The notes beneath the pieces are model-generated. The model made no database searches. It was not told the DNA's origin and saw only the letters and a list, made by a program, of their open reading frames with translations. Shown piece after piece: positions 9,437 to 64,000 of a DNA stretch of 64,000 nucleotides. Position numbers and translations under genes: made by a program. How positions within the stretch are numbered: the first letter of the stretch is position 1; each line of letters starts with the position of its first letter. This stretch comes from Acidobacteriota bacterium (lineage in GTDB: Bacteria; Acidobacteriota; Vicinamibacteria; Vicinamibacterales; UBA2999). The stretch lies in contig QHWQ01000010.1 in the NCBI GenBank assembly GCA_003222635.1, positions 3,334-67,333 of the forward strand, read 5' to 3'.

Positions 9437-11508
9437 ATGACGCGCGTCGCACTCCTGTGGCACATGCACCAGCCGTTTTACGAAGATCTGATCACGCACG
9501 AGCACATGCTGCCGTGGGTCCGGCTGCACGCCCTCAAGGACTACTACGGCATGGCGTCGCTGATGCGCGAGTTCCCCGACGTCCGCGCCACGTTCAACCT
9601 CGTGCCGTCGCTGCTCGTTCAGATCGAAAACTTCGCCCTCGACCGCGCGCGCGATCGCTTCCTCGACCTGAGCCTCAAGCCGGCGGCCGATCTCACCGAC
9701 GCCGACGCCGCCTTCATCCTGCAGAACTTCTTCCACGCGCAGCAGCAGCGGATGATCGAGGTCCACCCGCGCTACGCGCAGCTTTTCGCGCGGCGGGGCG
9801 TCGCACAGCCGTCCGATGCCGATGCGCGGGCGCTGGCGCGCCGGTTCACGAGCGACGACCTGCGCGACCTCCAGGTGTGGCACAAGCTGGCGTGGATCGA
9901 CCCCGAGTACCTCGAGCGCGACGAGCGGGTCCGCCGCCTCGTCGCCAGGGGCCGCGATTTCGGCGAGGACGACAAGGCGCTTCTGCGCACCATCGAGCTG
10001 GAGATCTTGAACAGGATCATCCCGGCTTCCGGCATCCGGAGGACGCATCGCAGCAGCTGTCGAACGCCGTGGCGCTGCACGAGCGTCTGTTCGGGCGGCA
10101 GCCGATCGGCCTGTGGCCTTCGGAGGGGTCGGTGTCGGATGCGATGGTGCCGCTCGTCGCGGCGGCCGGCTTCCAGTGGATGGCCACCGACGAGGAGATT
10201 CTCGGGAAGTCGATCGCCAGGGAGTTCACCCGCGACCGCGACGGAAACGTGGAGAACCCCGAGGCGCTGTATCGCTCGTATCGGGTCGGACGCGACGCGC
10301 AGGTCTCGTGCGGCTTTCGCGATCACACGCTGTCGGATCTCATCGGGTTCACCTACGCGTCATGGAACCCGGAAGCGGCCGCGGACAACTTCGTGCAACG
10401 GCTCGCCGACGCCGGCGCGCGCTACGCGGCGCGGACCAATGGGGGAGAGGCGACCATCTTCGTCATCCTCGACGGCGAGAATGCCTGGGAGCACTACGAA
10501 GGACAGGGGCGTCCGTTTCTCCGGGCCCTGTACAAACGGCTTGGCACGCACGCGTCGTTGAAGACGGTGACGATGGCGGAGGCGTGCGCGGCGCCGAAGG
10601 ACACGCTGCCGTCGATCTTTCCGGGTTCGTGGATCAATGCGGACTTCTACATCTGGATCGGCCACCCGGACGATCAGCGCGCCTGGAGCCAGCTGGCGGA
10701 CGCGCGGCGGACGCTCGAGTCCGCGGCCGGCGTCGCGCCGGAGGCGCTGGCGCGCGCGTGGGAAGAGCTGCTCATCGCCGAGGGGTCCGACTGGTTCTGG
10801 TGGTACGGCGACGACCATTCGTCGGACCACGATCTGGTGTTCGATGAGCTGTTCCGTCGCCACGTGCGCAACATCTACCGGGCCATCGACGTGCCGGCGC
10901 CAGAGGAACTGTTCGTCAGCAACATCACGACGCGGCCGCCCGCCACCGACGTCGTCGCGCCCAGCGGGTTCATCCATCCGGTCATCGATGGCGAGATCAC
11001 GAGTTACTTCGAATGGATCGGCGCCGGCTCGGTCGACGTCGCGCCGGTCGGCGACGCGATGCACGAGGTCTCGGCGCGCGACGCGATCGTGTCGGCGATC
11101 GACTTCGGATTCGACCTGACGAACCTCTACGTGAAGGTCGCCGGCGCGGCGCCGATGCGGGACGTCATCCGCGGCGACCAGCAGCTGAGCGTGAACTTCC
11201 TGCGACCGGAGGGCTGCCGGATTGTCGTCAGCGGCGCGGACGGAACGGTGCGCGCGCAGATGGTCGATCGACCGCGCGGCCTCGCCAACGGTGCGTCGCG
11301 GAGCTGCCCGGATATCAAGGTTGCGATTGGCCAGGTGCTGGAGCTGCAGGTACCGTTTCACTGTCTGGGCGTGACGAAGGAGTCAACCGTGGCGTTCCTC
11401 GTCGCCGTCAACCGCAACGCCGCGGAAGTGGAGCACCATCCGCGTCATCAGCCGATCGAGGTGCAGGTGCCGGACGAACGGTTCCCATCGAGGAACTGGA
11501 CGGCCTAG
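9437..11508 (+). pseudogene. glycoside hydrolase family 57 (alpha-glucan enzyme), internally deleted and frameshifted
   Basis: The N-terminal frame from ATG 9437 reads MTRVALLWHMHQPFYEDL...TIELEILNRIIP, then becomes nonsense. A second frame (track ORF 9433..11508) picks up at FRHPEDASQQLSNAVALHERLFGRQPIGLWPSEGSVSDAMVPL... and runs to 11508. Total length is not a multiple of 3. The conserved G-Q-[IV]-E...SPFYHPI block is absent. Confidence 0.85.
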
Positions 11509-11614
11509 CTAGCCATCCGCATTAGTTAACATAACATCTATTGTTTGCGGCATCGACGTCGAAACCGTCGTAATGCCTCAGATTTCCGCAATTTCCACAG
11601 ACCTTTTCTTCCTC

Positions 11615-12328
11615 TTAATAGAAGATGAACGTCTTCGGACGTCCTGGCTTCGCCCTGGCGGTTTCTTTCCTCACGTCCTGTCGCGTGACGCCGTTGCCGC
11701 CGTTGACGAGGCGCTCGACGAGCGCCGTCATCTTCTTCGGGTCCTGCTGACGGACGATCTGCAGCAGCGTCGACTTCGATGTGATGTCCGCCAGCCGGCA
11801 CAGATTCCGGACTTCCTCCGGCATGTTGTTCAGCGACAGCGACTCGGTGATCGCCGTGCGCGACTTCCCGAGCTTCCGCGCCATGTCCTCGTGCGTGTAG
11901 TCGCACTTCTGCGCGAGCTGATGCAGCGCCTCGGCTTCTTCAAACGCCGTCAGGTCCTTGCGCTGCAGGTTCTCGACGAGCGCCAGCTCCATCACCTCGA
12001 CATCGTCGACTTCACGGACGACGACCGGGATCTCGCGAAGACCGACCTGCACGGCGGCGTGATAGCGCCGCTCGCCGGCGATGATCTGAAAGCGGCCGCC
12101 GCGCTGCCGGACGATGAGCGGCTCGATGATGCCTTTTTCCGCGACCGACGCCATCAGCTCCGACAGATCGCCCATGACCTGGCGCGGCTGGTTCGGATTG
12201 GGATCGAGCAGCTCGATGGAAATCATGCGGCCGACGGGCGCGCCCGCGGAGGCGGCCAGCGCCTCGACGTAGTGCTCGTCATGCCGCATCCGCAGCGTTT
12301 CAGGCAGTCCGCGCTTCGACACGTTCAA
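11615..12328 (-). CDS. parB: chromosome partitioning protein ParB
   Basis: ParB box IIAGERRYHAA, an HTH region (THEDMARKLGKSRTAITESLSL), and a position immediately downstream of parA. At 237 aa it is short at the C-terminus. The start could be 12328 or the ATG at 12289. Confidence 0.9.
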   Translation of the reverse strand: MNVSKRGLPETLRMRHDEHYVEALAASAGAPVGRMISIELLDPNPNQPRQVMGDLSELMASVAEKGIIEPLIVRQRGGRFQIIAGERRYHAAVQVGLREIPVVVREVDDVEVMELALVENLQRKDLTAFEEAEALHQLAQKCDYTHEDMARKLGKSRTAITESLSLNNMPEEVRNLCRLADITSKSTLLQIVRQQDPKKMTALVERLVNGGNGVTRQDVRKETARAKPGRPKTFIFY

Positions 12329-13070: not shown

Positions 13071-13107
13071 CGACGCTCGACTAATTGTTCGGCAGGAAGT
13101 TGAAACG

Positions 13108-13136
13108 ATTCTAGGGATGGTGTGCGGATGTGTCAA
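13108..13136 (-). promoter_or_regulatory. sigma-70-type promoter for parAB
   Basis: The minus strand reads TTGACA-N17-TAGAAT, with -35 at 13136-13131 and -10 at 13113-13108. The -10 lies about 38 nt upstream of the parA ATG. Confidence 0.55.
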
Positions 13137-13154
13137 ACACCCCAAGATGGTGGA

Positions 13155-13194
13155 TGTCGGCCGGCCGACAATTCGGAATGTCGGCTGGCCGACA
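13155..13194. repeat. two tandem 16-bp palindromes (candidate operator or centromere-like site)
   Basis: TGTCGGCCGGCCGACA at 13155-13170 is a perfect palindrome. TGTCGGCTGGCCGACA at 13179-13194 has one mismatch. Both sit within a 24-bp direct repeat, ATGTCGGC[C/T]GGCCGACAATT. Confidence 0.75.
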
Positions 13195-13196
13195 AT

Positions 13197-15048: not shown

Positions 15049-15052
15049 TTGC

Positions 15053-16717
15053 TCAGTTCGCCGCGGACTTTCGCTTTCGCCTTTCGCCTTTCGCCCTGGC
15101 GTTGGAAAGGAGCTCCCGGGCACTCGCCCGAACCTGCTCCGTCACGGATGCGCCGCCAATCATACGTGCCACTTCCTCGACGCGGCCCAGCTCGTCGAGC
15201 CGTTCGACCTGCGTTACGGTCCGGCTGCCTTTGACCGATTTCTCGATCAGAAACTGCGCGTCCCCGCGGGCGGCGATCTGCGGCAGGTGCGTAATGCAGA
15301 GCACCTGAAACCGCTCCCCCAACGCCTGCAGCCTCGCCCCGACGACATCTGCAACCCGGCCGCCGATGCCGGCATCCACCTCATCGAAGATTAACGTCTT
15401 CCCCGGCGCATCCTCCGCGGCGAGCGTCTTCAGCGCGAGCATCACGCGCGACAGCTCGCCGCCGGAGACGATGCGCGCCAGCGGGCGGAGGTCTTCGCCC
15501 GGATTTGGTGAGACGAAGAATTCGGCCTGGTCGATGCCGCGGTCGCTCCACGCCTCGGCCGGCAGCTCACCGTCGTTGAAGCGGACCTCGAAGCGTGTGC
15601 GCGCCATCGCGAGCTCGGCGAGCAGTGCCTCGAGCTCGCGCGCGAATTCGACGGCCGCCTTGCGGCGCTTGCGCGAGAGATCGCGCGCGGCGATCAGATA
15701 CGCCGCGGTCGCCTCATCGAGCGCCTTGACGAGATCCTCCGCGCGCTCCCCTGCTCCGGTCAGAAGATCGCGTTCGCGCGCCAGCGTCTCGCCTTTCTCG
15801 ACGACCTCCTGCAGCGTCGGACCATACTTCCGCTTCAGACGCTCGAGCAGCGCGAGGCGATCCTCGACCTGCTGCAGCCGGCCGGGCGAGGCATCGATGC
15901 CGTCGGCGTAGCTGCGAAGGAAGAACGCGAGATCTTCGAGCTGCGATTTGATCCCATCGCGAGACTCGACATACGGCGCAAAGTGCGGATCGATGGTGGC
16001 GAGCTCTCCGACGCGCTTCCAGACGCCGCCGAGCCCCGCGAGCACCGCCGCCTCGCTGTCGTACAGCGCGTCGTAGCTTTCCTGACAGAGCCGCTGGACC
16101 CGTTCGGCGCTCGCCAGCACCTGCTTGGTTGCGGCAAGCTCCTCGTCTTCGCCCGGCCTCGGCGCCGCCTTCTCGATCTCGCCAAGCTGGAAAGCGATCA
16201 GATCCAGCCGCGCGGCTTTCTCCCGCGCGTCCATCCGCGAGCGCTCGAGCTGCTCGCGCAGCATCCGCACCTTCGTCCACGCGAGGGCAACGTTCGATGC
16301 GATGTCGCCGAGGTCGCCGTATTCATCGAGCAGCGGCAGGTGTGCCAGCGGATCGAGCAGCGCCTGGTGCTCGTGCTGCCCGTGCAGCTCCACGAGCCGC
16401 GCCGATAGATCGCGCAGCGCCGCTGCCGTCGCCAGCGCGCCATTGATGAACGAGCGGCTGCGCCCCTGGCTGCTGATCTCGCGGCGAACGATCAATTCGC
16501 GCTCATCAGCCTCGAAGATGGCTTCGATGGTGGCTTGCGCCTCGCCCGTGCGAACGAGATCAGCGGAGGCGCGCGCGCCGAGCAACAGCCCGACGGCTTC
16601 GACCAGGATGGACTTGCCCGCCCCCGTCTCCCCCGTCAGCACGTTGAACCCGGGCTCGAACTCGACCTCCAGGCCTGCGATGACCGCCAGGTTGCGGATG
16701 CGGAGGAAACGCAGCAT
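15053..16717 (-). CDS. recN: DNA repair protein RecN
   Basis: N-terminus MLRFLRIRNLAVI...VLTGETGAGKSILVEA, long coiled-coil middle, C-terminal SGGELSRVMLAL...LIFDEVDAGIGG. Length 554 aa. Confidence 0.93.
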   Translation of the reverse strand: MLRFLRIRNLAVIAGLEVEFEPGFNVLTGETGAGKSILVEAVGLLLGARASADLVRTGEAQATIEAIFEADERELIVRREISSQGRSRSFINGALATAAALRDLSARLVELHGQHEHQALLDPLAHLPLLDEYGDLGDIASNVALAWTKVRMLREQLERSRMDAREKAARLDLIAFQLGEIEKAAPRPGEDEELAATKQVLASAERVQRLCQESYDALYDSEAAVLAGLGGVWKRVGELATIDPHFAPYVESRDGIKSQLEDLAFFLRSYADGIDASPGRLQQVEDRLALLERLKRKYGPTLQEVVEKGETLARERDLLTGAGERAEDLVKALDEATAAYLIAARDLSRKRRKAAVEFARELEALLAELAMARTRFEVRFNDGELPAEAWSDRGIDQAEFFVSPNPGEDLRPLARIVSGGELSRVMLALKTLAAEDAPGKTLIFDEVDAGIGGRVADVVGARLQALGERFQVLCITHLPQIAARGDAQFLIEKSVKGSRTVTQVERLDELGRVEEVARMIGGASVTEQVRASARELLSNARAKGERRKRKSAAN

Positions 16718-21677: not shown

Positions 21678-21710
21678 CCTTTCCCGTCACGCTGCCCCGG
21701 TGAAATCAAG

Positions 21711-21763
21711 GTCCGGCTAAAGCCGGACGCTGCCGATGTTCGGTAGTGTCCGCCTTCGGCGGC
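21711..21763. repeat. REP doublet, second hairpin truncated
   Basis: GTCCGGCtaaaGCCGGAC lies at 21711-21728. GTAGT+GTCCGCCttc-GGCGGC at 21744-21763 lacks the full closing arm and runs directly into ssb codons. Confidence 0.75.
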
Positions 21764-22126: not shown

Positions 22127-23011
22127 TTATTTCCCCGCGAACGGTCCGACCTCGGGCTTGCCCTGCGTATTCGCAAGCGGCCCGAGTTCGGCTGCAACCC
22201 CACGCGCGATCGCTGCGGTTTCAGTACCCGCCTGAAAACAGGTGAAGTCGGGGCGATCGCGCCAGGCGAGTGGTCCGCACAGCCGCTTGCCCGCGCCGAT
22301 CGCGGCGTCGTGGACGATGTTGATCAGGCGCTCGTAGTCGGGACTCCCCTGCGCATAGCCGCTGAAGTTGCCGAGATCTCCGCTTGCCGCGAAGAGCGCC
22401 GTGACGCCGGGAACTTTCGCGATTTCCGCCGCGTTCTTCGCGCCCTCCAGCGTCTCGATCATCAGGACCAGCACGATGTTGTCGTTGATCGTTTGCCGAT
22501 AGCCGCCGGGCACGCCGCCGAACACCGCCGGATCGAATGCCTGGCCACCACCCTGGCTGCGCTTGCCGAGCGGCGGAAAGTAGACCCAGTCGCGCGCGGC
22601 GATCGCTTCCTCGACCGTGTCGATCGTCGGCACGACGACGACCAGCGCGCCCGCGTCCATCGCGTGCTGAATTTCGCGCTCATCGGCATACGCGACACGC
22701 ACGCCGGGGACCGCCTTCGCGTGCGGACAGGTGCGCCAGAGCCGCGACGTCAATTCCCAGTCGCGGCCGTCATGCTGCTGCTCGGTCCAGATGAAGTCGT
22801 AGCCCGCGTTCGCCATCGCGCAATACGTCGTGGGATCGGTGGCGCTGAAGACGGTGCCGCCGGTGACTTTCTGGCCGGCCATCATCTTCAGCTTCACCGG
22901 ATTCCAGATCTTGCTGCCCGCGGGCGCGTTGAACGCCGGGCCGTATTTCCAGTTGTTGGGATCGAGCCCAAGGGTGACGGCTATGAGGACGCCGAGGCCA
23001 ACGCGTGTCAT
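22127..23011 (-). CDS. HpcH/HpaI-family aldolase with N-terminal signal/anchor
   Basis: This 294-aa ORF shows ...GYDFIWTEQQHD...VVVPTIDTVEEA...VLVLMIETLEGA..., an HpcH/HpaI-like pattern. AAGGAGG lies 6 nt upstream of ATG 23011. Confidence 0.75.
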   Translation of the reverse strand: MTRVGLGVLIAVTLGLDPNNWKYGPAFNAPAGSKIWNPVKLKMMAGQKVTGGTVFSATDPTTYCAMANAGYDFIWTEQQHDGRDWELTSRLWRTCPHAKAVPGVRVAYADEREIQHAMDAGALVVVVPTIDTVEEAIAARDWVYFPPLGKRSQGGGQAFDPAVFGGVPGGYRQTINDNIVLVLMIETLEGAKNAAEIAKVPGVTALFAASGDLGNFSGYAQGSPDYERLINIVHDAAIGAGKRLCGPLAWRDRPDFTCFQAGTETAAIARGVAAELGPLANTQGKPEVGPFAGK

Positions 23012-26926: not shown

Positions 26927-27921
26927 ACGTGCCCTCCGTGCTCGACGTCGTCCTCGGCGTCGGCGTCGGCAGGCATCTCCTTTTCGCGCAGCTGCTGCTC
27001 GAGCCGGTTCGCGAGATCGCGCGCGGCGTTGAGACCGCGCGTCCGCAGCAGCTGGTTGCGCGCGGCGACTTCGACGAGCACGCCGAGGCTGCGTCCGGGC
27101 GCGACCGGCATGCGAATCAGCGGCACCTTGATGCCGACGATGTCGTAGCGGAGCTCGTCGATGCCGAGCCGCTCGTAGTCGCGACCCGGCTCCCACCGTT
27201 CGAGCTGCACGACCAGTTCGACGCGCTTGGCGTTGCGAATGGCGGCGACGCCGAACAAATCGCGGATGTTGATCAGGCCGAGCCCGCGGATCTCCATGTG
27301 ATAGCGCGTCATGTCCGGGCAGGTGCCAATCAGCGTCGTCTCGCCGCGACGCCGGATTTCGACCGTGTCGTCGGCGACGAGTCGATGCCCGCGTACGACG
27401 AGGTCGAGGCCGCACTCGCTCTTGCCGATGCCGCTCTCACCGATGATCAGCACGCCAAGGCCGAGCATGTCCATCAGCACGCCGTGGATGACCTGCCGCT
27501 CCGCGAGCTCGTCGTCGAGCAGGTATTCAATCTTCGCGATCGACACCGGCGTGCTCACCGCCGTCCGCAGCAGCGGCACGTCATAGCGATCAGATGCCGC
27601 CAGCAGCTCCACGGGCGGGTCCCATCCGCCGGTGATCAACACGCACGGAATGTCGTGGCTGAAGGCGGCCGCCAGCACGTTCATGCGGCTGGGTGCGTCG
27701 AGGCTCTCGAGGTACCGGATTTCGCTTTCGCCGAAGACGAGGATGCGCGCCGGCTGCAGGTACGCGTCGAACCCCGCGAGGGCGAGGCCGGTCTTCTGGA
27801 TGTGAGGGCTGGCGATGGCGCGCTCGAGACCGGAGGCGCCGCCGAGGAGCTCGAACGGAAGGCCGATCGCTTCCGCCCGGCTTTTCAGCAGGCCCGCGAC
27901 CGTGATCGATCGCGTGGCCAT
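26923..27921 (-). CDS. hprK: HPr kinase/phosphorylase
   Basis: This 332-aa ORF carries the P-loop VLIIGESGIGKSECGLDLV and HRLVADD...EIRGLG. Confidence 0.92.
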   Translation of the reverse strand: MATRSITVAGLLKSRAEAIGLPFELLGGASGLERAIASPHIQKTGLALAGFDAYLQPARILVFGESEIRYLESLDAPSRMNVLAAAFSHDIPCVLITGGWDPPVELLAASDRYDVPLLRTAVSTPVSIAKIEYLLDDELAERQVIHGVLMDMLGLGVLIIGESGIGKSECGLDLVVRGHRLVADDTVEIRRRGETTLIGTCPDMTRYHMEIRGLGLINIRDLFGVAAIRNAKRVELVVQLERWEPGRDYERLGIDELRYDIVGIKVPLIRMPVAPGRSLGVLVEVAARNQLLRTRGLNAARDLANRLEQQLREKEMPADADAEDDVEHGGHV

Positions 27922-28406: not shown

Positions 28407-29660
28407 CTAATAAAGAACTTTCCGTTGATTCGACGTTGGGATCTTCAGTTCCTCGCGGTACTTCGCGATGGTGCGGCGCGCGAGCTCGAGGCCCTCGCGC
28501 TGCAGGATGCTGACAATCTTCGAATCGCTCAGGGGCTTTCGCGGGTCTTCCTGTTCGATGATCTTGCGGATGCGCTGCTTGATGGTGACCGACGACACGG
28601 CCTCGCCGTAGGAGCTGGCGATGCCGCTGTGGAAGAAGTACTTCATCTCGAACACGCCCTGCGGCGTGTGCATGTACTTGTTGGTGACAACGCGGCTGAC
28701 CGTCGATTCGTGCATGCCGATGTCGTTGGCGACGTCGCGCAGCACGAGCGGACGCAGGTACTCGATGCCGTGATCCAGGAAGTCGCGCTGGAAGTTGATG
28801 ATGCTCGTCGCGACCTTGTGAATGGTCTTCTGCCGCTGCTCGACGGACTTGATCAGCCAGAGCGCCGAACGGAACTTGTCTTTCACGTAGGCGCGCGTCT
28901 CGTCGGTGTTCTCCGTCTGGGTCTTGTCGAGCAGCCGGCGGTAGACCGGGCTGATGCGCAGCTGCGGCAGCCCTTCCTCGTTCAGCACCGCGACGTACTG
29001 GTCCTCGACCTTGACGACGTAGACGTCGGGGATGACGTATTGCGATTGCGAGGGATTGAGACGGCTGCCCGGCTTCGGATCGAGATGACGAATGAGCTCG
29101 ATGTGCTGCTTCAGTTCGTCGATGGAGAGTCCCAGCTTGCGCGCCAGCTCCGGCACCTGGTGGTTCTGCAGCAGCCGCATGTGCTCGGTGACGATCTTCT
29201 CGGCCGGCGTGCCGCCCATGCCGAGGTGCCGCAGCTGCAGCAGCAGGCACTCCTGCAGGTCGCGCGCGGCGACGCCAATCGGATCGAAGCCCTGAATCAG
29301 CTTCAGCGCCTTCTCGACCCGCTCGACCGGCCAGGGCCCCATGGCCGCGAGCTCCTCGACGGTCGCCACGAGCTGGCCGTCGTCATCGAGGTTGCCGATG
29401 ATGGCCTCGCCGATCTCGCGGATCTGCGGATCGTCGGTCTGCATCGACAGCTGCCACAGCAGATGGTCAGAGAGCGACGTACCTGTTGAAAGCGTGTTCT
29501 CAATCGGCGGCAGCTCTTTGACCTCGGTGGGCGTCCGGGGACGGTAGCCGTCATCGAGGTAGTCGCCGAAGAAATACTCGTAGTCCTGATCGTCCCAGGT
29601 ATCGCCCTTCTGAATGAGCTTCTGGACGAGCTTGGTATGGAGCTTCTGCGAGATCGCCAC
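28407..29660 (-). CDS. rpoN: RNA polymerase sigma-54 factor, apparently lacking most of Region I
   Basis: The RpoN box ARRTIAKYRE, the HTH region (VANDIGMHESTVSRVV) and the core-binding region are all present. The N-terminus reads MAISQKLHTKLVQKL and then passes directly into the acidic region (IQKGDTWDDQDYEYFF...). Length is 417 aa, against the usual 470-500. Confidence 0.9.
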   Translation of the reverse strand: MAISQKLHTKLVQKLIQKGDTWDDQDYEYFFGDYLDDGYRPRTPTEVKELPPIENTLSTGTSLSDHLLWQLSMQTDDPQIREIGEAIIGNLDDDGQLVATVEELAAMGPWPVERVEKALKLIQGFDPIGVAARDLQECLLLQLRHLGMGGTPAEKIVTEHMRLLQNHQVPELARKLGLSIDELKQHIELIRHLDPKPGSRLNPSQSQYVIPDVYVVKVEDQYVAVLNEEGLPQLRISPVYRRLLDKTQTENTDETRAYVKDKFRSALWLIKSVEQRQKTIHKVATSIINFQRDFLDHGIEYLRPLVLRDVANDIGMHESTVSRVVTNKYMHTPQGVFEMKYFFHSGIASSYGEAVSSVTIKQRIRKIIEQEDPRKPLSDSKIVSILQREGLELARRTIAKYREELKIPTSNQRKVLY

Positions 29661-32580: not shown

Positions 32581-33314
32581 CAGTTCATCCTTCCGCTTCC
32601 CGGTTCCCAGTTCGTGTTCAGGTGCTGGTTCAGTTCGGTATTCCGCGTTTGAGGTTAGTTGTTCGACGCTGCAGGTTCTACGTTCTTTATCGGCGTCTAG
32701 GCGCGAGGAATTTGCAGTTCCCGGAGCGAGACGTGTCGATTTCGGCGGAAATCTGGCGGGCATGTCGCGTGCTCATCGACGTCGCATGGGAAAAGGGGTT
32801 CAACGATTCGAGGACCTACGAGCATGGCAGGCGTGCGATGCCTTCAAGAGAGCGGTCTATGACTTGTGTGAGCAGAAGCCGATCGCGCGCGATTTTGGGC
32901 GGCGGAAGCAAATCGAGGAGTCATCTTCGCGAACCACCGCGCACATTGCCGAAGGCTTCGGCCGCTTCTATCCCGCCGATTTCGCGCGGTTCTGCGTGAT
33001 CGCGCGGTCCTCGTTGATGGAATCGCAGAATCATCTGATCGACTTCGTCCACAAGAAATACATCACCGAGGATCGCAGACAGGAACTGAATCAGCTCGTC
33101 GTTACTGCGTTGGAAGAAGTGACCGGGCTGATTGAATACCTGCAATCGCCGGAAGCGCTCCGCAACGCACGCCGCGCACGTGAGCGACGAGTAGTATCGC
33201 GCGCCGAACGACAGGAACAGAGAACCGCCCGAACCAAGAAGAACAAGAACCAGAACGATGAACCGAACGTGAACCTGAACCCGAACGGTGAACGGTGAAG
33301 CGGAAGGGTGAACG
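32581..33314. mobile_element. long inverted-repeat element carrying a four-helix-bundle gene (IVS-like cassette)
   Basis: The left end reads CAGTTCATCCTTCCGCTTCCCGGTTCCCAGTTCGTGTTCAGG.... The right end reads ...GAACCTGAACCCGAACGGTGAACGGTGAAGCGGAAGGGTGAACG and is the reverse complement of the left. The same termini occur on the 158-bp repeat at 25871. The element fills the lptC/A-recJ spacer. Mobility is inferred, not shown. Confidence 0.6.
32786..33298 (+). CDS. four-helix-bundle protein (23S rRNA intervening-sequence protein family)
   Basis: The protein reads MGKGVQRFEDLRAWQACDAFKRAVYDL...SSSRTTAHIAEGFGRFYPADFARFCVIARSSLMESQNHL. Its C-terminal tail (..KKNKNQNDEPNVNLNPNGER) is encoded by the right repeat arm. 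The track ORF 31694..33298 is over-extended. Confidence 0.8.
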   Translation: MGKGVQRFEDLRAWQACDAFKRAVYDLCEQKPIARDFGRRKQIEESSSRTTAHIAEGFGRFYPADFARFCVIARSSLMESQNHLIDFVHKKYITEDRRQELNQLVVTALEEVTGLIEYLQSPEALRNARRARERRVVSRAERQEQRTARTKKNKNQNDEPNVNLNPNGER

Positions 33315-39579: not shown

Positions 39580-40989
39580 CTATTCCCATTCGATCGTTGA
39601 AGGTGGTTTGCTGCTGATGTCGTACACCACGCGGTTGATGCCGCGCACCTCGTTGACGATGCGAGAGGAGATCGTCGCGAGCAGGTCGTGCGGGAGACGC
39701 GCCCAGTCGGCGGTCATGCCGTCGAGGCTCTCGACCGCGCGGATCGCGATCGTGTACTCGTAGGTCCGCGCATCGCCCATCACGCCGACGCTCTGCACCG
39801 GCAGCAGCACCGCGAAGCTTTGCCAGAGGCGCTCGTACCACCCCGCCTGGCGGATTTCCTCCGCGACGATCTTGTCCGCGAGGCGCAGCAGGTCGAGGCG
39901 CGGCCTGGTGATTTCTCCGATGACTCGCACCGCCAGTCCCGGGCCCGGGAACGGCTGGCGGATGACGAACTCCTTGTCGAGGCCGAGATCGCGGCCGACC
40001 GGGTAGAGCGTCCCCTGCGCCAGGAAATCGAAGCGGCCAAGCTCGTTGGCGCGCGTCTCGAACACGTCGATGAAGGTCGCGCCGATGATCTTCCGCTTCT
40101 GCTCGGGATCGGTCACGCCGGCGAGCCGCTCGAGGAACGTGCTCGACGCATCGACGAAGTCGAGCGGCAGCTGCATCTTCTCGCGGAAGCGCTTGACGAT
40201 CTGGTTCGCCTCGTCGTCGCGCAGCAGCCCGTTGTCCACGAAGATGCACGTCAGCCGATCGCCGATCGCGCGATGAATGAGCATCGCGGCGACCGTTGAA
40301 TCGACGCCGCCCGACAATCCGCAGACGACCTTGCCGTTGCCGACCTGCAGCTTGATGCGCTCCGTCGCTTCTTCGATGAACGACGCGATCGTCCAGTCGC
40401 CCGTGCACCCGCAGACGCCGTAGGCGAAGTTGCGAAGAATCGCGAGCCCGTGATCCGTGTGCGCGACCTCCGGATGGAACAACAGCGCGTACAGTTCGCG
40501 ATCGGGCGCTTCCATCGCGGCGATCGGCGCCGTCGCGCTCGTTGCCGCCACATGAAATCCCGGCGGCACCGCATTCACATCGTCGCCGTGGCTCGCCCAG
40601 ACGCGGAGCTCGGACGGCACCCGCGTGAAGAGCCGCGGCGGCGCGCCGTTGCCGGTGACGCGCACGTGCGCGTGGCCGAACTCGCGCTGCCCGGAACGGC
40701 GGACTTCCCCGCCCAGCACATCCGTCATCAGCTGCATGCCGTAGCAGATGCCGAGCACCGGCGTGCCGAGCTCGAACAGTTCAGGCGCGCACTTCGGCGC
40801 GCCCGCTTCCGACACGCTCTTCGGCCCACCTGAGAGAATGATCCCGACGGGGTTTTTCTCTCTGATTTTCTCGAGCGGCGTGTTGAACGGAACAATCTCG
40901 GAGTACACCGACAGCTCACGCAGCCGTCGAGCGATCAACTGCGTGTACTGCGAGCCAAAATCCAGGACGAGAATGGTCTGGTGGGGCAC
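39580..40989 (-). CDS. guaA: GMP synthase (glutamine-hydrolysing), with apparent in-frame internal deletion
   Basis: GATase region [17 protein letters not shown]...GICYGMQ, PP-loop [12 protein letters not shown]-terminal end ...[11 protein letters not shown]. The sequence reads [10 protein letters not shown]|[21 protein letters not shown], so the block IES...IKSHHNVGGLP...LFKDEVR is skipped. I prefer GTG 40989 as the start. Confidence 0.88.
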
Positions 40990-42316: not shown

Positions 42317-42367
42317 ATTTATCGCGCGCGGATCGGTCTGGCGCGGCGCGTGCACACGGGCGCGCGC

Positions 42368-42783
42368 ATGGCTCGCGCGCCGGCTCCGAGACTCGCCAAG
42401 GCCGACTACATTGGTCGTCGCGGCTACTTTCTGACGGTCATTCATGCCGGACCACGTGCACTTCGTCGTAGAAGGCCAGCGCAATGATTCGGACTTGTTC
42501 GAGCTGGTTCGCGTTTGGAAATCAGAGACGGCGTTTCATTTCAAACGCGCAACGCGTCGTCCCCTATGGCAAGCGCAGCTTCTTCGACCGCGCCATGCGT
42601 GATCACGACGAGATGGTGGCGTTTGCACGCTACGTAATCGAAAATCCGGCCCGGGCCGGATTGCCCGAAGAACGGCGTCGTTATCCTTTTGTCGGATCGG
42701 ATACGACGACGATTGAGCAAATTCTCCACCGCGATCTGCCGCGGGGAATGTCTCGCAATTCGTCGTCTAAATTCGTAGTGTAG
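42368..42783 (+). pseudogene. REP-associated tyrosine transposase (RAYT, IS200/IS605 Y1-type), decayed
   Basis: Three segments lie in three different frames: MARAPAPRLAKADYIGRRGYFLTV, then FMPDHVHFVVEG...RVWKSETAFHFKRATRRPLWQ, then SFFDRAMRDHDEMVAFARYVIENPARAGL. About 50 residues are missing after YFLTV, and there is a 1-nt shift near 42568. Confidence 0.75.
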
Positions 42784-42807
42784 GCGCGCGTCTTCAGACC
42801 CGCCCCC
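42775..42807. repeat. REP hairpin flanking the RAYT pseudogene (right, inverted)
   Basis: GTAGTGTAG followed by GCGCGCGTC ttca GACCCGCCC. This is the inverted counterpart of the left copy, with two stem mismatches. Confidence 0.7.
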
Positions 42808-42829
42808 AGGGGATGATTGAGAAAAGAGA

Positions 42830-44056
42830 TTACGCGACGGGAGTCGGCATCATCGCTCTTGCGAGGCGTGCGGCACCCTCGCGGATCCGATCGGGCGCCG
42901 GCCAGGAGAATGACAGGCGGACGCGGCCGTGGCCGCTGCCGTCCACGCAGAATGCGCTGCCGATGACGAACAGGACGCCCTGCTCCATCGCCTTCTCGAG
43001 CAGCGCAATGTCCTCGAACCCGTCAGGCAACTGTGCCCACAGGAAGAAGCCGCCCTTCGGCTTGATCCACGAGAGGCGATCGCCAAACTGATCGCGCAGC
43101 GTCTGCTCCATGACGTCGCGCCGATCGCGATACAACTTGCGCAGCGCCGCCGCCTGACGATCCAGCACGCCGCGCGCGATCGACTGATGGACCACGCGCT
43201 GGTCGAGGATGCCGCACATCAGGTCCATCGACTGCTTCGCGGTATCGAAGCGCTCGACGATCGGCGCCGGCGCCGCGACCCACGCGACGCGGAAGCCTGG
43301 CGCCAGCGTCTTCGAGAACGTGCTCAGGTAGATCACCCGTCCATGGCGATCGTCGGCCTTGAGCGGCCGCGTTTCCGCCGCGGTGGCGACGTCCTCGAAA
43401 TACAGCTCGCCGTACGGATCGTCCTCGACGATCAGCATGTTCCGCCGCTCCGCCCACTCGAGCAGCCGCTGCCGCTTCTCGAGGCTGAGGAGAATTCCCG
43501 CCGGATTCTGGAAATTCGGCACCAGATACAGCAGGTTGACGCGCGACCCCGCTTTCCGCTCGCGCATGCAGGACGCGTCGAGATCCTCGAGATTGATCCC
43601 GTCCGCATCCTGCCTGACGCCAACCAGCCGGCACTGCGCGTTGCGGAACGCCGCGATCGCGCCCGTGTAGGTCGGCACCTCGACGAGCACCACATCGCCC
43701 GGCGCAATCAGCACGCGCGCGGTCAAGTCCAGCCCCTGCTGCGACCCGCTCGTCGTCATGACCTCGGTGAGGTCTGCCTTGATGCCGCGCTTCTCGAGCA
43801 CTCCGAGAATCGATTCGATCAGCGGTCGATAGCCGCGCGTTGGCCCGTACTGCAGCACGGAGCCGTCCTTCCCGGAGAGCAGCTCGCTCGCGATCGCGCG
43901 GAACTCCTCCCATGGAAACCCCGCCGGGTCGGGATAGCCGGCGGCAAACGAGATCAGGTCACCACTGCGTGAGGCGATGACCTGCCCCATCTTCCGCAGC
44001 ACCGACTCATGAAGGCTGCGGCCGAGCGGAGACAGAAACGAGTCGTATGAATTCAT
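42830..44056 (-). CDS. PLP-dependent aminotransferase (class I/II; 2-aminoadipate/aromatic transaminase-like)
   Basis: From ATG 44056 the protein reads MNSYDSFLSPLGRSL.... The motifs YGPTRGY, NPAG and YLSTFSKTLAPGFRVAW (PLP lysine) are present. The track start at 44857 is over-extended. Confidence 0.85.
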   Translation of the reverse strand: MNSYDSFLSPLGRSLHESVLRKMGQVIASRSGDLISFAAGYPDPAGFPWEEFRAIASELLSGKDGSVLQYGPTRGYRPLIESILGVLEKRGIKADLTEVMTTSGSQQGLDLTARVLIAPGDVVLVEVPTYTGAIAAFRNAQCRLVGVRQDADGINLEDLDASCMRERKAGSRVNLLYLVPNFQNPAGILLSLEKRQRLLEWAERRNMLIVEDDPYGELYFEDVATAAETRPLKADDRHGRVIYLSTFSKTLAPGFRVAWVAAPAPIVERFDTAKQSMDLMCGILDQRVVHQSIARGVLDRQAAALRKLYRDRRDVMEQTLRDQFGDRLSWIKPKGGFFLWAQLPDGFEDIALLEKAMEQGVLFVIGSAFCVDGSGHGRVRLSFSWPAPDRIREGAARLARAMMPTPVA

Positions 44057-45079: not shown

Positions 45080-46906
45080 GTGGACTCGCCGCTTCGCCGT
45101 GTGCTCCCGATCGCGCTGACCGGCGCGGTTTGCGTGCTGGCGGTGATCGCCGCGGGGCGCATCGCGGAACGCATCGTGCTCGGCGCGGACGCGGCGGCGG
45201 TGCGGGCGCGGGTGGATCGCGACATCCGCGGCGCATTTGCGGTGATGTCCGCGGGGCTGCAGGCCATCGCGCGCGGCGTGGCGAACGCCGACGCGCTCGT
45301 GGCGGCGACCCGCGGCGACGAGGCGGCCGCCCGCCAGCTGTTCGACGCCGCGCAGCGCGTCGCCGTGGCGCGGACGCCCGACGTCGAGCTCGCGGTGACG
45401 GCCTATGCCCCCGATAGCCGTCCGCTCGCCTGGGCCGGCCGGCCGTCGGAGCTGCCGAAGGACCGCGTCGAAGGCGACGAAGCGTGGTTCATCGCACAAG
45501 GCGCGCTCGGGTTGCGTCTCGTGTATGCCATGCCGGTCACCGACGCGCACGGCATTCGCGTCGGCACCATCGCGGCCGAGCAATCGATTCGCCCTCCGAC
45601 ATCGTCCGGCGCCGTCACGCGCGTCGATCAGTTTCAGTTTCCCGGCGAGCTCGTGCCGGTGTCCCTCGAGCTCGCATTCGAAGACATTCGCACCACTCCC
45701 GATCCGGATCGCATCGACATCACCGGCCCGACGGGCCGGCATCTGGTCACCGCGGTCATCACGCCGTCGGATCTCGCGCAGGCACGCGCGCACTGGCGTC
45801 AGATGACGCTGTCGATCGCGGAGATGACCGGCGCGGTCTTCGTCCTGCTGCTCTGCGGCCCGCTGCTCGATCTGCGAGACACCGCCCGTCGCGCGCCGCC
45901 GTATGCGCTGGCGACGCTCGCCGCCGGCGCCGCGATTGGCGGCGGACGACTGCTCTTCCGCACCGCGTCGCCCGCCGACTGGTGGGATGCGCAGATCTTT
46001 TCCGGCCAGGCGTATGCCTCCCCGGAGCTGCGGCCGCTGCTCGCCTCGCCATTCGATTTCCTTGCGACCGCGGCGGCGGCCGCGGGCCTCGTGGCGCTCG
46101 CCTTCTTCGCCTTCGAGGCATGGCGTGTCTATCGCCGTCATGCGCGCATCACGATCGACTCGCCTGCCGCGCTGATCGCCTTCTTCGCGGCGCAATTGGT
46201 GTCGGGCGTCGTCGCCGTGGTGATGCTCGCGGCGCAACACGCATTGCTGGCGGATACGGTTGCCAACACCACGCTCGATCTCCTCCATTTCTCCCTTCAC
46301 CCCTGGAACACCGCTCTCACGGCACTGCAGGTTGGTATCGTCATCTGGGATGCCACCGCGCTCGCGTTGATCGTGCTGATCTTCAGGGCGGCGTATCTGC
46401 CGTGGTGGATCGTTCGCAACCCGGTTGAAAGGACGCTATCGCCAGGGATCGCAGGCCTTCCGCCTCACGCTGTTGTCGATTGGGCTGATCCTGCCCGCGC
46501 TCGCGTTCTACGCCGACATCTTCGAGCTCGCGCACCGTGCGAAGACGCAGCTGGTCGAGACGCGCTACGGTCCGCAGGCGCTCAATCAGCGGCAGACGAT
46601 TCAGACGCTGATGCAGCAGAGCCTGCGGCAGATCGACGGCTTTCCGGGACTGGCGGATCTCGTCTCGGTGCCGCCGGGACCGGAGGGCTCCGAAGCGGTC
46701 ACCGATCGCGCGTTCCAGGTGTGGCGGATCACGGGTCTCGCGATGTTCCCGATCACGTCGTCGGTGGAGCTCTTCGGCCCCGATGGACATCTGGTCAGCC
46801 GCTTCGCGTTCAATCTCCCCGACGACCTGAACGCGGTGCCGACCTCGGAGGAGCAGGTCTGCGTATGGGATGTCTTCGAGGAGGTCTCTCCTTTCTTCGC
46901 GGTTGA
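45080..46906 (+). CDS. N-terminal periplasmic/multi-TM module of a very large sensor kinase; frame is lost near 46420
   Basis: The sequence is protein-like up to ...LIVLIFRAAYLPWWIVRN at about 46415. After that it turns into an Arg/Ala-rich nonsense tail running to the stop at 46906, while the next ORF opens in another frame at the same point. Confidence 0.65.
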   Translation: MDSPLRRVLPIALTGAVCVLAVIAAGRIAERIVLGADAAAVRARVDRDIRGAFAVMSAGLQAIARGVANADALVAATRGDEAAARQLFDAAQRVAVARTPDVELAVTAYAPDSRPLAWAGRPSELPKDRVEGDEAWFIAQGALGLRLVYAMPVTDAHGIRVGTIAAEQSIRPPTSSGAVTRVDQFQFPGELVPVSLELAFEDIRTTPDPDRIDITGPTGRHLVTAVITPSDLAQARAHWRQMTLSIAEMTGAVFVLLLCGPLLDLRDTARRAPPYALATLAAGAAIGGGRLLFRTASPADWWDAQIFSGQAYASPELRPLLASPFDFLATAAAAAGLVALAFFAFEAWRVYRRHARITIDSPAALIAFFAAQLVSGVVAVVMLAAQHALLADTVANTTLDLLHFSLHPWNTALTALQVGIVIWDATALALIVLIFRAAYLPWWIVRNPVERTLSPGIAGLPPHAVVDWADPARARVLRRHLRARAPCEDAAGRDALRSAGAQSAADDSDADAAEPAADRRLSGTGGSRLGAAGTGGLRSGHRSRVPGVADHGSRDVPDHVVGGALRPRWTSGQPLRVQSPRRPERGADLGGAGLRMGCLRGGLSFLRG

Positions 46907-59760: not shown

Positions 59761-61800
59761 TCAACGCCCGGCCTGCGCCAACGCAGGCCGCGGCGTCAGC
59801 ACCACGCGCCAATTCTCGTAGTCGACCTGCGTCGGCACCTTGCCGATCTTCGACGGCGTGTAGCGGATCGTTCGCAGCAGCAATCCCGAATCCATGTCGA
59901 AGTACATGCTCACAAACGATCCCCGCGCGCCGTTGCCCTGCAGCAGGTAGACGAATTTCCCGTTGAGCTCGGTGACCGGTCCCACGCGCAGGCCACTCAA
60001 TGCGTGCGCGATGTTCGCCGGGAACGCCAGCTGCGCGTCGATGCGCGCACCATCGAGCTCACCGCCGGTCAACGGATACTTCGGCACGACGGCCAGCGGA
60101 ATCGCAAACCAGCCCGTGCGGCCGTCGAAGGTGCGGCTGCTCTCGCCGTCCGGCAGGTGGCTGAGCATGGCGCGCTTGTCCGGCGCCTGCGCGAAGTACT
60201 CGAAGTTGCCGCCGCCGCCGAAGCTGCCGAACGCGACCACCTTGCCCGTGCCGGTGATCGTGTTGATGCCCATCACCTTGTCCGCGCCGCCGAGCGCCTG
60301 CAGGTACTTGTCGAGCATCTGCGCCGGCGACGGCACGCCCTCGCCCTTCGACACCTGGTCATCGAGCTCGGATTCGGCCTCCGCGTAGAACCTGTCGAGT
60401 ACCGGCGTCTGGACCGGCGTCAGACGAAGGCGATGGCACGTCCAGCAGGTCACCACCTGCTGACCGTTGAAGTTATCGCGATTGATCGCCTGCACCATGG
60501 ACGCCATCTCCCGCGCACGCACCTTGCGCGGATTCTCGTCGGATTCCCAGACGACCTTGTCGGTGCCCGCGCCCGGGTGACAGTCGTTGCAGCAGAGGCC
60601 GAGCGAGGACGACATCAGCCCCATCGTTCCCATGAACTCGTCGACGGTGATCCCCTTGAGCACCTGGACGTTCTTGAAGACGTCCTCGACCATCACGGGG
60701 CCGCGCGTCTGTCCCGCCGCCCGTGCCCGCCCTTGCGCGATCGCCTGCGGCGACTGCGCCGCCGGCGACGGCGTCGTCCGGAATCCCTGGACCGTGAGCA
60801 GCGTGATCATCGCGAAGACGAAGATGAAGCTGCCGATGACAACTGGCCGCTGCCGTGGCGCGCGCTCGGGCCGCGTGTCGATGAACGGCAGCAGGAACAG
60901 GAGTGCGACGACGAGACCCGGGATGACGATGGTCGCGATCGGTTCGAGGCGCCCCGGGAAATGCTTCAGGAGCTCGAACAGGCTCATGAAGTACCACTCG
61001 GGCCGCGGGACGTAGGTGGCGTCGGTCGGATCCGCGACGTTGTCGAGCGGGGCGTTGAACGCGACCGCACACGTCAGCAGCAGCGCGAACACCACGGCGA
61101 TCGAAATCGTGTCCTTGATCGCGTGATACGGATAGAAGGGCGTCGCCGGCCCGGCGACCGGCTTGACCGGGCCGGAGATGCCATGACGGCGCAGCAGGTA
61201 GATGTGCGCGACCGTGAACGCGATTAAGGATGCAGGCAGCAGGAACACGTGCGCGGCGTACCAGCGCATCAACGTCAGCGCGCCGAGACCCGTCCCGCCC
61301 CTCAGCAATCCGCTCACGAAGTTGCCGACGAGCGGCGTGCTCCGCGCGATGTTCAGCGTGACGGTGGTCGCCCAGTACGCCTTCTGATCCCACGGCAGCA
61401 GATACCCGGTCAGCGCGAAACCGAGAATGATCAGCAGCAGCAGGACGCCGATCACCCAGTTCAGCTCGCGCGGCTTCTTGTACGAACCCAACGCCATCAC
61501 CCGCAGCATGTGCACGACCGCCGCGATGACGATGAAGCTGGCCCCGAAGAAATGCAGGCCGCGGAGGACGCGTCCGAACGTGACGCGCTCCATGATGAAG
61601 CGGATGCTGTCGTAGGCGTGGTCCGGCGAGGGCGAGTAGAAGATCGCGAGCAGCACGCCCGTGACGAGCTGCACCGTCAGCAGGAACATGACGATGCTGC
61701 CGGTGACGAACCACCAGCCGGTGCCGCTCGGCAGCGGCTCCTCGAGGAGATCTTTCAGGATTCCGCGAAAGCCGGTTCGATGGTCGAGCCAATCGCGCAT
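59761..61800 (-). CDS. cytochrome b (b6 + subunit IV) fused to a di-haem c-type cytochrome domain and a C-terminal beta-rich domain
   Basis: Haem-ligand His pairs are in LHFFGASFIVIAAVVHML and AAHVFLLPASLIAFTVAHIY, and the PEWY motif reads RPEWYF. Then VFKNVQVLKGITVDEFMGTMGLMSSSLGLCCNDCH and TCWTCH supply two CxxCH sites of reaction-centre cytochrome-c type. About 230 further residues are of unknown fold. Confidence 0.85.
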   Translation of the reverse strand: MRDWLDHRTGFRGILKDLLEEPLPSGTGWWFVTGSIVMFLLTVQLVTGVLLAIFYSPSPDHAYDSIRFIMERVTFGRVLRGLHFFGASFIVIAAVVHMLRVMALGSYKKPRELNWVIGVLLLLIILGFALTGYLLPWDQKAYWATTVTLNIARSTPLVGNFVSGLLRGGTGLGALTLMRWYAAHVFLLPASLIAFTVAHIYLLRRHGISGPVKPVAGPATPFYPYHAIKDTISIAVVFALLLTCAVAFNAPLDNVADPTDATYVPRPEWYFMSLFELLKHFPGRLEPIATIVIPGLVVALLFLLPFIDTRPERAPRQRPVVIGSFIFVFAMITLLTVQGFRTTPSPAAQSPQAIAQGRARAAGQTRGPVMVEDVFKNVQVLKGITVDEFMGTMGLMSSSLGLCCNDCHPGAGTDKVVWESDENPRKVRAREMASMVQAINRDNFNGQQVVTCWTCHRLRLTPVQTPVLDRFYAEAESELDDQVSKGEGVPSPAQMLDKYLQALGGADKVMGINTITGTGKVVAFGSFGGGGNFEYFAQAPDKRAMLSHLPDGESSRTFDGRTGWFAIPLAVVPKYPLTGGELDGARIDAQLAFPANIAHALSGLRVGPVTELNGKFVYLLQGNGARGSFVSMYFDMDSGLLLRTIRYTPSKIGKVPTQVDYENWRVVLTPRPALAQAGR

Positions 61801-61804
61801 ATGT

Positions 61805-62335: not shown

Positions 62336-62356
62336 GCGTCAAAGGAGACATTCACG

Positions 62357-63001
62357 ATGCTGCGACGTTTCCTGCTCGTTGCCCTCCTCGCGCTGGTGGC
62401 CGTGCCGATTGCCGCGCAGGGTCCGGCCGGCTGGAAGGTGCTCCCAGACGGAGGAAACGCCACGCTGAGCGTGATGCCCACGGAAAAGGGCTTCCAGCTC
62501 GCTGGCGGGCCGGGCATCTTCTTCAATCCCATGAACACCGTGAAGCCGATCTACCGCGTGCGCGCGACGTTCACGCAGTTGAAGGCGCCGGCGAAGAATA
62601 CCTACTACGGATTGTTCTTCGGCGGCAACCAGATGGACACGTCGCCCGAGTACGTCTACCTGGCGATCGCCGCGGATGGCAGCTTCATCATCCGCCATCG
62701 CGCCGGCACGCACGTGGACGAGATGGACAAGTCGCTGCACTACGCGATCAAGAAGCCGGATGCGAGCGGCAAGGCGGTGAACACGCTCGAGGTGCAGGTC
62801 GCGCCGACCGCCGTGTCGTATCTCGTCAACGGCGCCGTCGTCGACGCCACGCCGACGCGCAGTGCCATCGCCGGGCAGTCATTTACCGTGACGGAGAAGA
62901 TCGGCGGCGTCGTCGGCGTCCGCGTCGATGATCCGATTGACGTGCAGGTCGATAGCTTCCTCTTCCAATCGCCGTTTCAGTTGAACGACCGCGGGCAGTA
63001 G
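62357..63001 (+). CDS. secreted protein, possible concanavalin/LamG-like (DUF1080-like) fold
   Basis: An AAAGGAGA RBS precedes a signal peptide (MLRRFLLVALLALVAVPIAAQ), and the rest is beta-rich. The family assignment is weak. Confidence 0.65.
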   Translation: MLRRFLLVALLALVAVPIAAQGPAGWKVLPDGGNATLSVMPTEKGFQLAGGPGIFFNPMNTVKPIYRVRATFTQLKAPAKNTYYGLFFGGNQMDTSPEYVYLAIAADGSFIIRHRAGTHVDEMDKSLHYAIKKPDASGKAVNTLEVQVAPTAVSYLVNGAVVDATPTRSAIAGQSFTVTEKIGGVVGVRVDDPIDVQVDSFLFQSPFQLNDRGQ

Positions 63002-63017
63002 CCCGCGGCCGTCACGT

Positions 63018-64000
63018 CTACTTCGTGGCGCGCTGCCCAACCGCGCGCTTCAGCTCGTCGATCGAAACCTTCCGGCCATCCGCCGGATAGTGCACCGGCA
63101 CGATCGTCTCGACATCCAGCTTCAGCCGGTTGATGTTGTCCAGCAGAAGGGCGTTCGCCGGGTTCGGCGGCGCCGCGGCGTCGGCCGTAGCCGGCGGGTT
63201 GAACGAATCGGCTTCGAGCAGCACCTTCTCCTTCGGAAGGTACGCGAAGAGGAGCCCTTCGTTGTGCAGGCTGCCCTGCGTCTTGTGGATCTCGATGGTG
63301 TGCACGCCGTCGGTGAGGACGCGCTTGTCGCCCACCAGCTCCACCTTCACCTTCGCGTGGTTCTGCGAGAGCTTGTCGGGGACCAGCGTATGCGGCAGCG
63401 CGAAGATCTTCTCGAAGTAGCCCTTGTTCGTCTGACTCGTGATGATCGTGGCCCCCTCGGCGACGAACGCACGCAGGCCGCTCGAGTGGTCGAAGTGGCT
63501 ATGGGTGTTGAACACGTACTTGATTGACTTCCCCGGAATGTCCTTGTGCACCTCGGCGATGATCTGCTCGCCGCGCATCGTGCTCTGGGGCCCTTCGAGG
63601 ACGACGATGCCATCCTTCATGTCGACGGCGATCGCGGCATACGCGGGCATGATCAGGAAGACGCCGTCGCCGAGCTGCTGTGACGATGGACCCTGCGGCC
63701 CGCCACCGCCCCCACCCGGCGCACCGCCCCCGCGCTGCGGCGGCGCGATGTTAGCGGCCACATTCGCCTTCGCGTCGAGTCGATCCATGTCTCGACCTTG
63801 GCGATCATGTTGTCGGCGCCGATGTAGCCGTTCACTTTCGCCTTGTTGGGCGCGATGAACGTGACGACGCTGTACTTCTTGCCGCCCATCGTCGCCGATC
63901 CGAGCGTGACGTCGTTTCTCGCCGCCTGGCGCAGGAACCCGTAGGGCGTCAGCCAGATCGGCAGCTGGTTCGGCCACGGCGTGTTCGCGTTCACGATCAA
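63018..64000 (-). pseudogene. MBL-fold metallo-hydrolase with N-terminal extra domain; frameshifted, 5' end beyond window
   Basis: The C-terminal frame reads ...LDAKANVAANIAPPQ...GDGVFLIMPAYAAIAVDMKDGIVVLEGPQ...VFNTHSHFDHSSG, the HxHxDH motif. The upstream part, ...TPYGFLRQAARNDVTLGSATMGGKKYSVVTFIAPNKAKVNGYIGADNMIAKVETWIDS, lies in a different frame. The switch is near 63775-63786. Confidence 0.75.

Follow-up and report, generated by a model that had tools for sequence, protein, structure and literature searches.

Nine blocks missing from 64 kb of a Vicinamibacterales scaffold are very probably collapsed assembly gaps

Results

The DNA analysed here is a stretch of 64,000 nucleotides (nt), called the window throughout, with a G+C content of 65% and an N count of zero over positions 1-64000. 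Its gene content is that of Acidobacteriota of the order Vicinamibacterales, and the closest GTDB species representatives among the matches listed were Vicinamibacterales metagenome-assembled genomes (MAGs) with approximately 85% DNA identity. Nine blocks of 120-171 nt (40-57 codons) that near-identical sister contigs contain are cleanly absent from the window. They are missing at the genes for a GH57 glycoside hydrolase, SSB, an HpcH/HpaI aldolase, HPF, RpoN, GuaA, a sensor histidine kinase, a cytochrome b and an MBL-fold hydrolase.

The near-identical sister contigs and scaffolds, designated by L numbers (e.g. L087), were found via exact protein look-up. The set consists of 34 loci in 11 other metagenome assemblies, and its identity to the window across positions 1-64000 is 99.7-100%. 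Its sources were MEGAHIT-style 'k141' contigs, 'CRIT18-1_SAMN0890xxxx_METAG-scaffold' scaffolds and three JGI metagenomes, and each missing block was spanned by 1 to 6 independent contigs. Eight junctions were aligned in one way, and the GH57 junction was aligned separately (globally against L087). Protein look-ups were exact matches among approximately 15 billion proteins, junction look-ups covered 241 million JGI metagenome records, and conservation percentiles were computed among 80 GTDB relatives for five blocks (aldolase, hpf, ssb, guaA and rpoN). A plot of third-codon-position G+C for locating frame changes along the window was also tried, and its signal was too noisy. Junctions are written a/b, the last and first window bases retained around the missing block, and were located as follows.

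10024/10025, plus strand: GH57 gene; 133 nt missing, frameshift, approximately residues 197-241 of 734 (global alignment to L087)
21756/21757, plus strand: ssb; 126 nt missing, consisting of 58 nt upstream, the ATG and 22 codons (MGSVNKVILVGNLGRDAELRYT)
22967/22968, minus strand: HpcH/HpaI aldolase gene; 120 nt (40 codons) missing, in frame, residues ~16-55 of 334
28303/28304, minus strand: hpf; 131 nt missing, frameshift, residues ~24-67 of 193
29611/29612, minus strand: rpoN; 171 nt (57 codons) missing, in frame, residues 18-74 of 474, Region I / Sigma54_AID
39998/39999, minus strand: guaA; 129 nt (43 codons) missing, in frame, approximately residues 331-374 of 512
46412/46413, plus strand: sensor histidine kinase gene; 140 nt missing, frameshift, residues ~445-491 of 1329
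59803/59804, minus strand: cytochrome b gene; 120 nt (40 codons) missing, in frame, approximately residues 667-706 of 719
63776/63777, minus strand: MBL-fold hydrolase gene; 127 nt missing, frameshift, residues ~184-225 of 477

All nine sites were intact in the 11 other assemblies. The GH57 block is carried by L087, L089, L109 and L110, with a gene of 734 amino acids (aa) called in the first three, and in the window gene positions 51-121 of the Pfam GH57 profile are left uncovered. The ssb lesion takes out the ribosome binding site, the start codon and the start of the OB-fold; the SSB Pfam match in the window begins at profile position 22, and the full 145-aa SSB is encoded by L087, L090 and L091. 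The aldolase is 294 aa long in the window and 334 aa in the reference, and the cytochrome b 679 aa and 719 aa, respectively. A full 193-aa HPF is encoded by L002-L005 and L087. Six sister contigs carry an uninterrupted rpoN (474 aa); the window product of 417 aa has the Pfam CBD and DBD domains, and Sigma54_AID was not found in it. The full 512-aa GuaA is located on scaffold_448 (L001/L093), and the extra sequence at this junction is also present in the GTDB relatives that extend to guaA, among the matches listed. The kinase block is carried by all of L093-L098, and the MBL hydrolase is uninterrupted (477 aa) in six sister contigs.

The preliminary description of this DNA, made without tools, had reported eight like losses of approximately 40-50 residues each. 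Seven of these (GH57, ssb, hpf, rpoN, guaA, kinase and MBL) proved to be exact deletions in comparison to near-identical DNA. The frame status given for them was also correct, changed in GH57, hpf, kinase and MBL (four of the nine lesions) and retained in rpoN and guaA. The alignment to orthologues that was proposed there has now been run, and the proteins are not collinear, with exact blocks missing in each case. Two lesions of the same kind, at 22967/22968 and 59803/59804, were not part of that description; the loss in the aldolase and the C-terminal loss in cytochrome b were overlooked because a tool-free reader notices losses only in well-known domains. The eighth reported lesion, in a RAYT gene, is real but was wrongly grouped with the others, as it is identical in the independent scaffold L093.

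The nine private deletions of at least 120 nt lie within 54.5 kb, compared to approximately three N-free lesions in approximately 230 kb of aligned sister sequence, and their density is far above chance. Positions 1-9483, which are identical to L110, contain no lesion of this kind.

Three of the truncated products were traced to GenBank, namely RpoN of 417 aa (PYR82458.1), cytochrome b of 679 aa (PYR82479.1) and the aldolase of 294 aa (PYR82450.1). Each was found once among the approximately 15 billion proteins, all on one 70,140-nt NCBI MAG contig with locus tags DMF87_. The full-length forms were found on many contigs, one 474-aa RpoN sequence on 23 of them. The three GenBank proteins match the junction-spanning translations of the window residue for residue and contain no X residues, so the GenBank record is contiguous at the rpoN, cytochrome b and aldolase junctions. 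The window therefore belongs to this record, a scaffold of a 'MAG: Acidobacteria bacterium' (protein accessions PYR824xx). Neither the rpoN junction 28-mer nor the aldolase junction sequence had a match in the 241 million JGI metagenome records.

These results bear on the possibility that Ns of the public record were stripped, or that blocks were excised deliberately or accidentally, when the window was prepared. The window is free of Ns, and sister scaffolds have N-runs at some of the same places, as would be expected from such stripping. However, it is contradicted at three junctions, where the GenBank proteins equal the window translations, and random cuts by a preparation pipeline would not fall on the contig ends of other assemblies. 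We consider this explanation very unlikely: the lesions are already in the deposited record. Closed gaps or stripped Ns had been the first option of the preliminary description, together with a check for Ns in the original record. Its general sense, that sequence is missing from the assembly and not deleted in the cell, is in all likelihood right; at the three junctions covered by the GenBank proteins the original record has no Ns.

The junctions themselves are featureless. Microhomology was 0-1 nt per junction and amounted to 4 nt over eight junctions, compared to 6.7 nt expected for random cuts of the same sizes. The motifs CCGGC (GH57) and CAGAAG (rpoN), previously regarded as direct repeats at the junctions, do not flank the deletions. 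The blocks showed no sequence similarity to one another, termini included, and no copy of a block was found elsewhere in the window; comparison thus ruled out that the blocks were relocated within the window or are alike. The G+C content of the blocks was 56-74%, which in view of the window mean rules out drop-out of GC-rich sequence as the cause. Among the 80 relatives the blocks ranked at conservation percentiles 4 (aldolase), 25 (hpf), 31 (ssb), 61 (guaA) and 95 (rpoN). This range rules out that the assembly graph was broken by conserved blocks common to co-occurring strains, and it does not bear out the earlier claim that the blocks are invariant in their families. Distant relatives that align at the five tested blocks also carry them, and the blocks encode parts of core domains. 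Five of the nine deletions are divisible by three, which is above the one-third expected, but not significantly.

Within 150 nt of the junctions, 0-1 substitutions per junction were found at eight junctions (GH57 is the exception), the single one being in guaA at position 39996, 3 nt left of the junction. Outside the blocks the affected genes were 99.9-100% identical to intact homologues, and the segments between junctions were 99.6-100% identical to intact relatives. As there are almost no differences near the junctions, the genes are not decaying. Independent pseudogene decay in the course of reductive evolution, or the excision of inserted elements (inteins, introns or miniature inverted-repeat transposable elements) that the relatives have kept, would account for several disrupted genes, and one true pseudogene (RAYT) is indeed present in the window. 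However, the near-identity outside the blocks indicates that selection was not relaxed, and the lesions are all of 120-171 nt without accompanying substitutions. Excised insertions are contradicted by the finding that the blocks are core protein parts in distant relatives too, such as sigma-54 Region I and the start of the SSB OB-fold, and no terminal or internal sequence is common to the blocks. The probability of decay or excision is practically negligible, in agreement with the doubt already expressed about independent decay on first reading.

The GH57 gene differs from the other sites in having an additional feature on the left side of its junction:

9484-10024, plus strand: foreign-genotype piece in the 5' part of the GH57 gene; 541 nt, codons ~17-196, approximately 72% identity to every sister contig

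The window and L110 are 100% identical over 1-9483 (0 mismatches over 9.4 kb), followed by 156 differences in 9484-9959, and from 10025 on, after the 133-nt loss, the identity is back to 99.9%. The left boundary at 9483/9484 is a sharp, indel-free switch of identity, and L110 has a 10-N gap within the same stretch of GH57. The piece is a contig from another co-occurring genotype spliced into the GH57 gene, and at this site the evidence for an assembly artefact is direct. Clear strain switching was not seen in the other segments between junctions, and switching at every junction was therefore ruled out as an explanation. The mosaic consensus that the preliminary description had offered as a third option is partly right, in view of this 541-nt piece.

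Contig ends or N-runs of sister assemblies fall on five of the nine sites (ssb, aldolase, hpf, cytochrome b and MBL), and at four of them (ssb, hpf, cytochrome b and MBL) the break in the sister lies 0-4 nt from the left edge of the block. At the left edge of the ssb block a 98-N run of L088 begins and the MEGAHIT contig L089 ends at the same nucleotide, and L092 ends 22 nt earlier; this break site is the loop of a hairpin, GTCCGCCTTCAGGCGGAC. The missing aldolase block encloses both a 60-N run of L088 and the point where L002 diverges. The left edges of the hpf and MBL blocks are the exact end points of scaffold L088 and contig L106, respectively. At cytochrome b, the left edge is overlapped by an N-run of L104, L102 and L107 diverge there, and L106 begins 4 nt ahead of it. 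No sister contig end or N-run coincided with the block edges in rpoN, guaA and the kinase gene. From approximately 45 contig ends or N-run edges, 55 kb and 18 block edges, the number of coincidences within 4 nt expected by chance was roughly estimated at 0.1, compared to at least five observed.

The N-runs in sister scaffolds stand for real gaps that are 62-227 nt long. Between junctions, the segments measure 1.2-13.4 kb and have the size of sister contigs made by other assemblers (up to 35 kb), whereas the scaffold of the window exceeds 64 kb.

The region upstream of ssb (21708-21757) contains two terminator-like hairpins, GGTCCGGCTAAAGCCGGAC and GTCCGCCTTC, the latter completed by AGGCGGAC in intact contigs. 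Two sister contig ends and the start of one N-run lie inside or adjoining the second hairpin, which accordingly is a break point for de Bruijn assemblers. Several sister contigs also share ends or N-runs at places where the window is intact, at window positions 15245-15378, ~27655, ~28780-28800 and ~45000 (15379/15406, 27655/27656, 29029/29051 and 45681 in restored coordinates), and these are other assembly break points of the population.

Discussion

Taken together, the nine lesions are very probably errors of a mosaic MAG scaffold, either collapsed gaps or local misassemblies, and not biology. In the organism itself the genes are almost certainly full-length, as they are in every other assembly of the population. 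The scaffold would be a chain of about ten contigs, each of 1.2-13 kb. At each join the 120-171 nt between two contigs would have been left out and the ends butted together without an N-run, and one short contig (9484-10024) would stem from another genotype that co-occurs with this one.

The scaffolds closest to the window are from BioSample SAMN08902861 with the study label CRIT18-1, and we infer that the source is a 'curated' IDBA-UD soil MAG of BioProject PRJNA449266 (Angelo grassland soil). In that project 250-nt reads were trimmed to 200 nt with a target mate spacing of approximately 500 nt, and the samples were assembled individually by IDBA-UD with k 30-200 and scaffolding (PMC6784897). 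Local assembly errors in IDBA-UD scaffolds have been described as prominent by the same group (PMC7111523). The bins of the project were passed through an automated repair of scaffolding errors, which finds regions of zero coverage and reassembles the local reads by Velvet, or else inserts Ns or breaks the scaffold (PMC5079060). As 120-171 nt is less than the trimmed read length and the mate spacing, read pairs could bridge such gaps. The gap itself may have been lost by the IDBA-UD scaffolder, by the automated Velvet repair or by removal of Ns before submission.

Several points weigh against collapsed gaps. Only the left edges of the blocks match sister contig ends, and the size range is narrow, with a floor at exactly 120 nt. 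The rpoN, guaA, kinase and MBL junctions fall inside unbroken scaffolds of the SAMN08902861 assembly, which, judging from its near-identity, appears to be a re-assembly of the same sample, and hence not every site is intrinsically hard to assemble. For guaA there is one near-identical reference contig only. The lack of read support at the junctions is something we infer, and it is the style of the accession and the sister samples that connect the DMF87 record with PRJNA449266, IDBA-UD and the repair program ra2.py. A derivation of the 120-nt floor as the read length minus two minimum k-mers (200 - 2x40) was considered and is not relied on.

The lesions could also be real deletions of approximately 120-170 nt, made by a recurrent process such as illegitimate recombination or nuclease action in a Vicinamibacterales lineage or in the subpopulation captured by this MAG. 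The narrow size distribution, the clean junctions in a record deposited as contiguous and the (not significant) excess of multiples of three are compatible with this, and a co-occurring deletion allele could itself branch the assembly graphs at the block edges in sister assemblies. However, L106 comes in from the right, reads across the cytochrome b block and ends at its left edge instead of the right one, which does not fit the bubble of a simple deletion allele, and the switch to 72% identity at one junction cannot be produced by a deletion. The junctions were absent from the 11 other assemblies and the JGI contigs, and were confined to one record in the 15-billion-protein set; microhomology and a common motif were not found. 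The genes hit include guaA and cytochrome b, and the loss of the ssb start and four frameshifts occur in otherwise perfectly conserved genes without accompanying substitutions. Real deletions are thus very to extremely improbable. The recurrent deletion mechanism via short repeats, which had been the second option on first reading, finds no support in the microhomology, in the block sequences or in any other assembly. It is equally hard to believe in a real low-abundance soil Vicinamibacterales lineage with many clean, microhomology-free core-gene deletions of approximately 120-170 nt that is seen in one assembly only, and we consider it extremely unlikely. If it were true, either the deletions would be the work of a recurrent process so far unknown, or the cell line would be non-viable or dependent.

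Among known systems, the collapsed gaps resemble the local and scaffolding errors of IDBA-UD (Chen, Anantharaman, Shaiber, Eren and Banfield 2020, PMC7111523; repair in Anantharaman et al. 2016, PMC5079060). Both involve a wrong consensus at contig joins, affect one assembly only, lie where other assemblers stop or put Ns, and bring truncated or frameshifted genes into protein databases. The published errors are unsupported sequence, Ns despite overlap and wrong repeat numbers, whereas the window has a clean loss of 120-171 nt without N or overlap, nine times in 54 kb. Ordinary N-run gaps in metaSPAdes or IDBA-UD scaffolds are alike in position, in spacing (1.2-13 kb) and in being smaller than the read-pair span. 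Sister scaffolds L087, L088, L094, L102, L104, L109 and L110 have such N-runs, 10-360 nt long, and several of these lie at lesion loci. In the window, however, no Ns are left in the record, the gap is unflagged and the annotation calls truncated proteins across it. The abrupt switch to approximately 72% identity and back inside one gene is similar to that in chimeric strain- or species-mixed metagenome contigs, but only one such segment is present. Microhomology-mediated or slipped-strand deletions and pseudogene decay also remove tens of codons, sometimes with a frameshift, and RAYT is a genuine case. The nine lesions differ in lacking flanking repeats and accompanying mutations, in affecting essential genes and in being found in no other sample.

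The analysis has no biological importance as such, as ssb, guaA, rpoN, hpf, cytochrome b and the other affected genes are almost certainly normal in the organism. It is a warning about data quality, since a deposited 'curated' MAG scaffold would hide approximately one unmarked gap per 6 kb. Artefactual proteins are in all probability now in NCBI nr; for example, PYR82458.1 is a sigma-54 that lacks Region I, and PYR82479.1 (cytochrome b) and PYR82450.1 (aldolase) are both too short. The four frameshifted genes presumably appear in the record as split genes or pseudogenes. Such MAGs would mislead anyone who concludes from them that genes or domains were lost or have become pseudogenes, or who trains sequence models on them. 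A cheap check is to compare with near-identical contigs of other assemblies and to see if the lesion edges match their contig ends.

Other sequence variants

The RAYT lesion belongs to a separate class:

42350-42783, plus strand: RAYT (IS200-like Y1 transposase) pseudogene; internal loss at ~42440, second frameshift at ~42590

Its open reading frame is in fragments in three frames, approximately 36 positions of the Y1_Tnp profile are missing near 42440, and the remaining match to this profile is weak (positions 49-85). The gene is base-for-base identical in L093, with differences only downstream (42785-42830). It is thus an ordinary pseudogene common to the population, separate from the nine private lesions. 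After the gene, 42780-42830 is a GC-rich palindromic REP-like sequence, with two substitutions and a 1-nt indel compared to L093.

Two variants of the window are shared with sisters. At 11543-11620 a fairly AT-rich segment of 78 nt stands in place of 175 nt of L087, L089 and L109, with loss of approximately 35 C-terminal residues of ParB. It is also present in L110, and L088 begins 21 nt into the alternative version; the variant is a genuine strain difference or else an error that two assemblies of one sample have in common. Approximately 86 nt at 33108-33193 are found in the window and L001 and not in L003, L004 and L006. They adjoin a gene of the 23S_rRNA_IVP family, called with either 144 or 115 aa depending on the set, and represent a natural or assembly polymorphism.

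The sister assemblies have private lesions too. In L087 (18815-18927, corresponding to window 27414-27600) an unrelated insert of 113 nt replaces 187 nt of hprK. L107 lacks, at ~1354-1373 (window 60900-61228), 329 nt of cytochrome b that lie between copies of GCAGCAGGAACA, and L098 has at ~5136-5146 (window 45935-46021) an 87-nt deletion in the kinase gene. Assembly errors are therefore frequent for this low-coverage population. A second MAG from the same project (L054) had no such lesions over 17 kb, with natural linker indels only, so the problem is not uniform across the data set, and the lesion density probably depends on coverage.

Two protein architectures appear to be normal features of the lineage. 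The product of the cytochrome b gene (59761-61800, minus strand) is extended at its C terminus by a multihaem cytochrome c (CytoC_RC-like). A single 771-aa protein (7104-9452, minus strand) combines LptF and LptG, as seen in all relatives found, and its GenBank record PYR82437.1 is annotated 11 residues longer than in other assemblies, a matter of start-codon choice.

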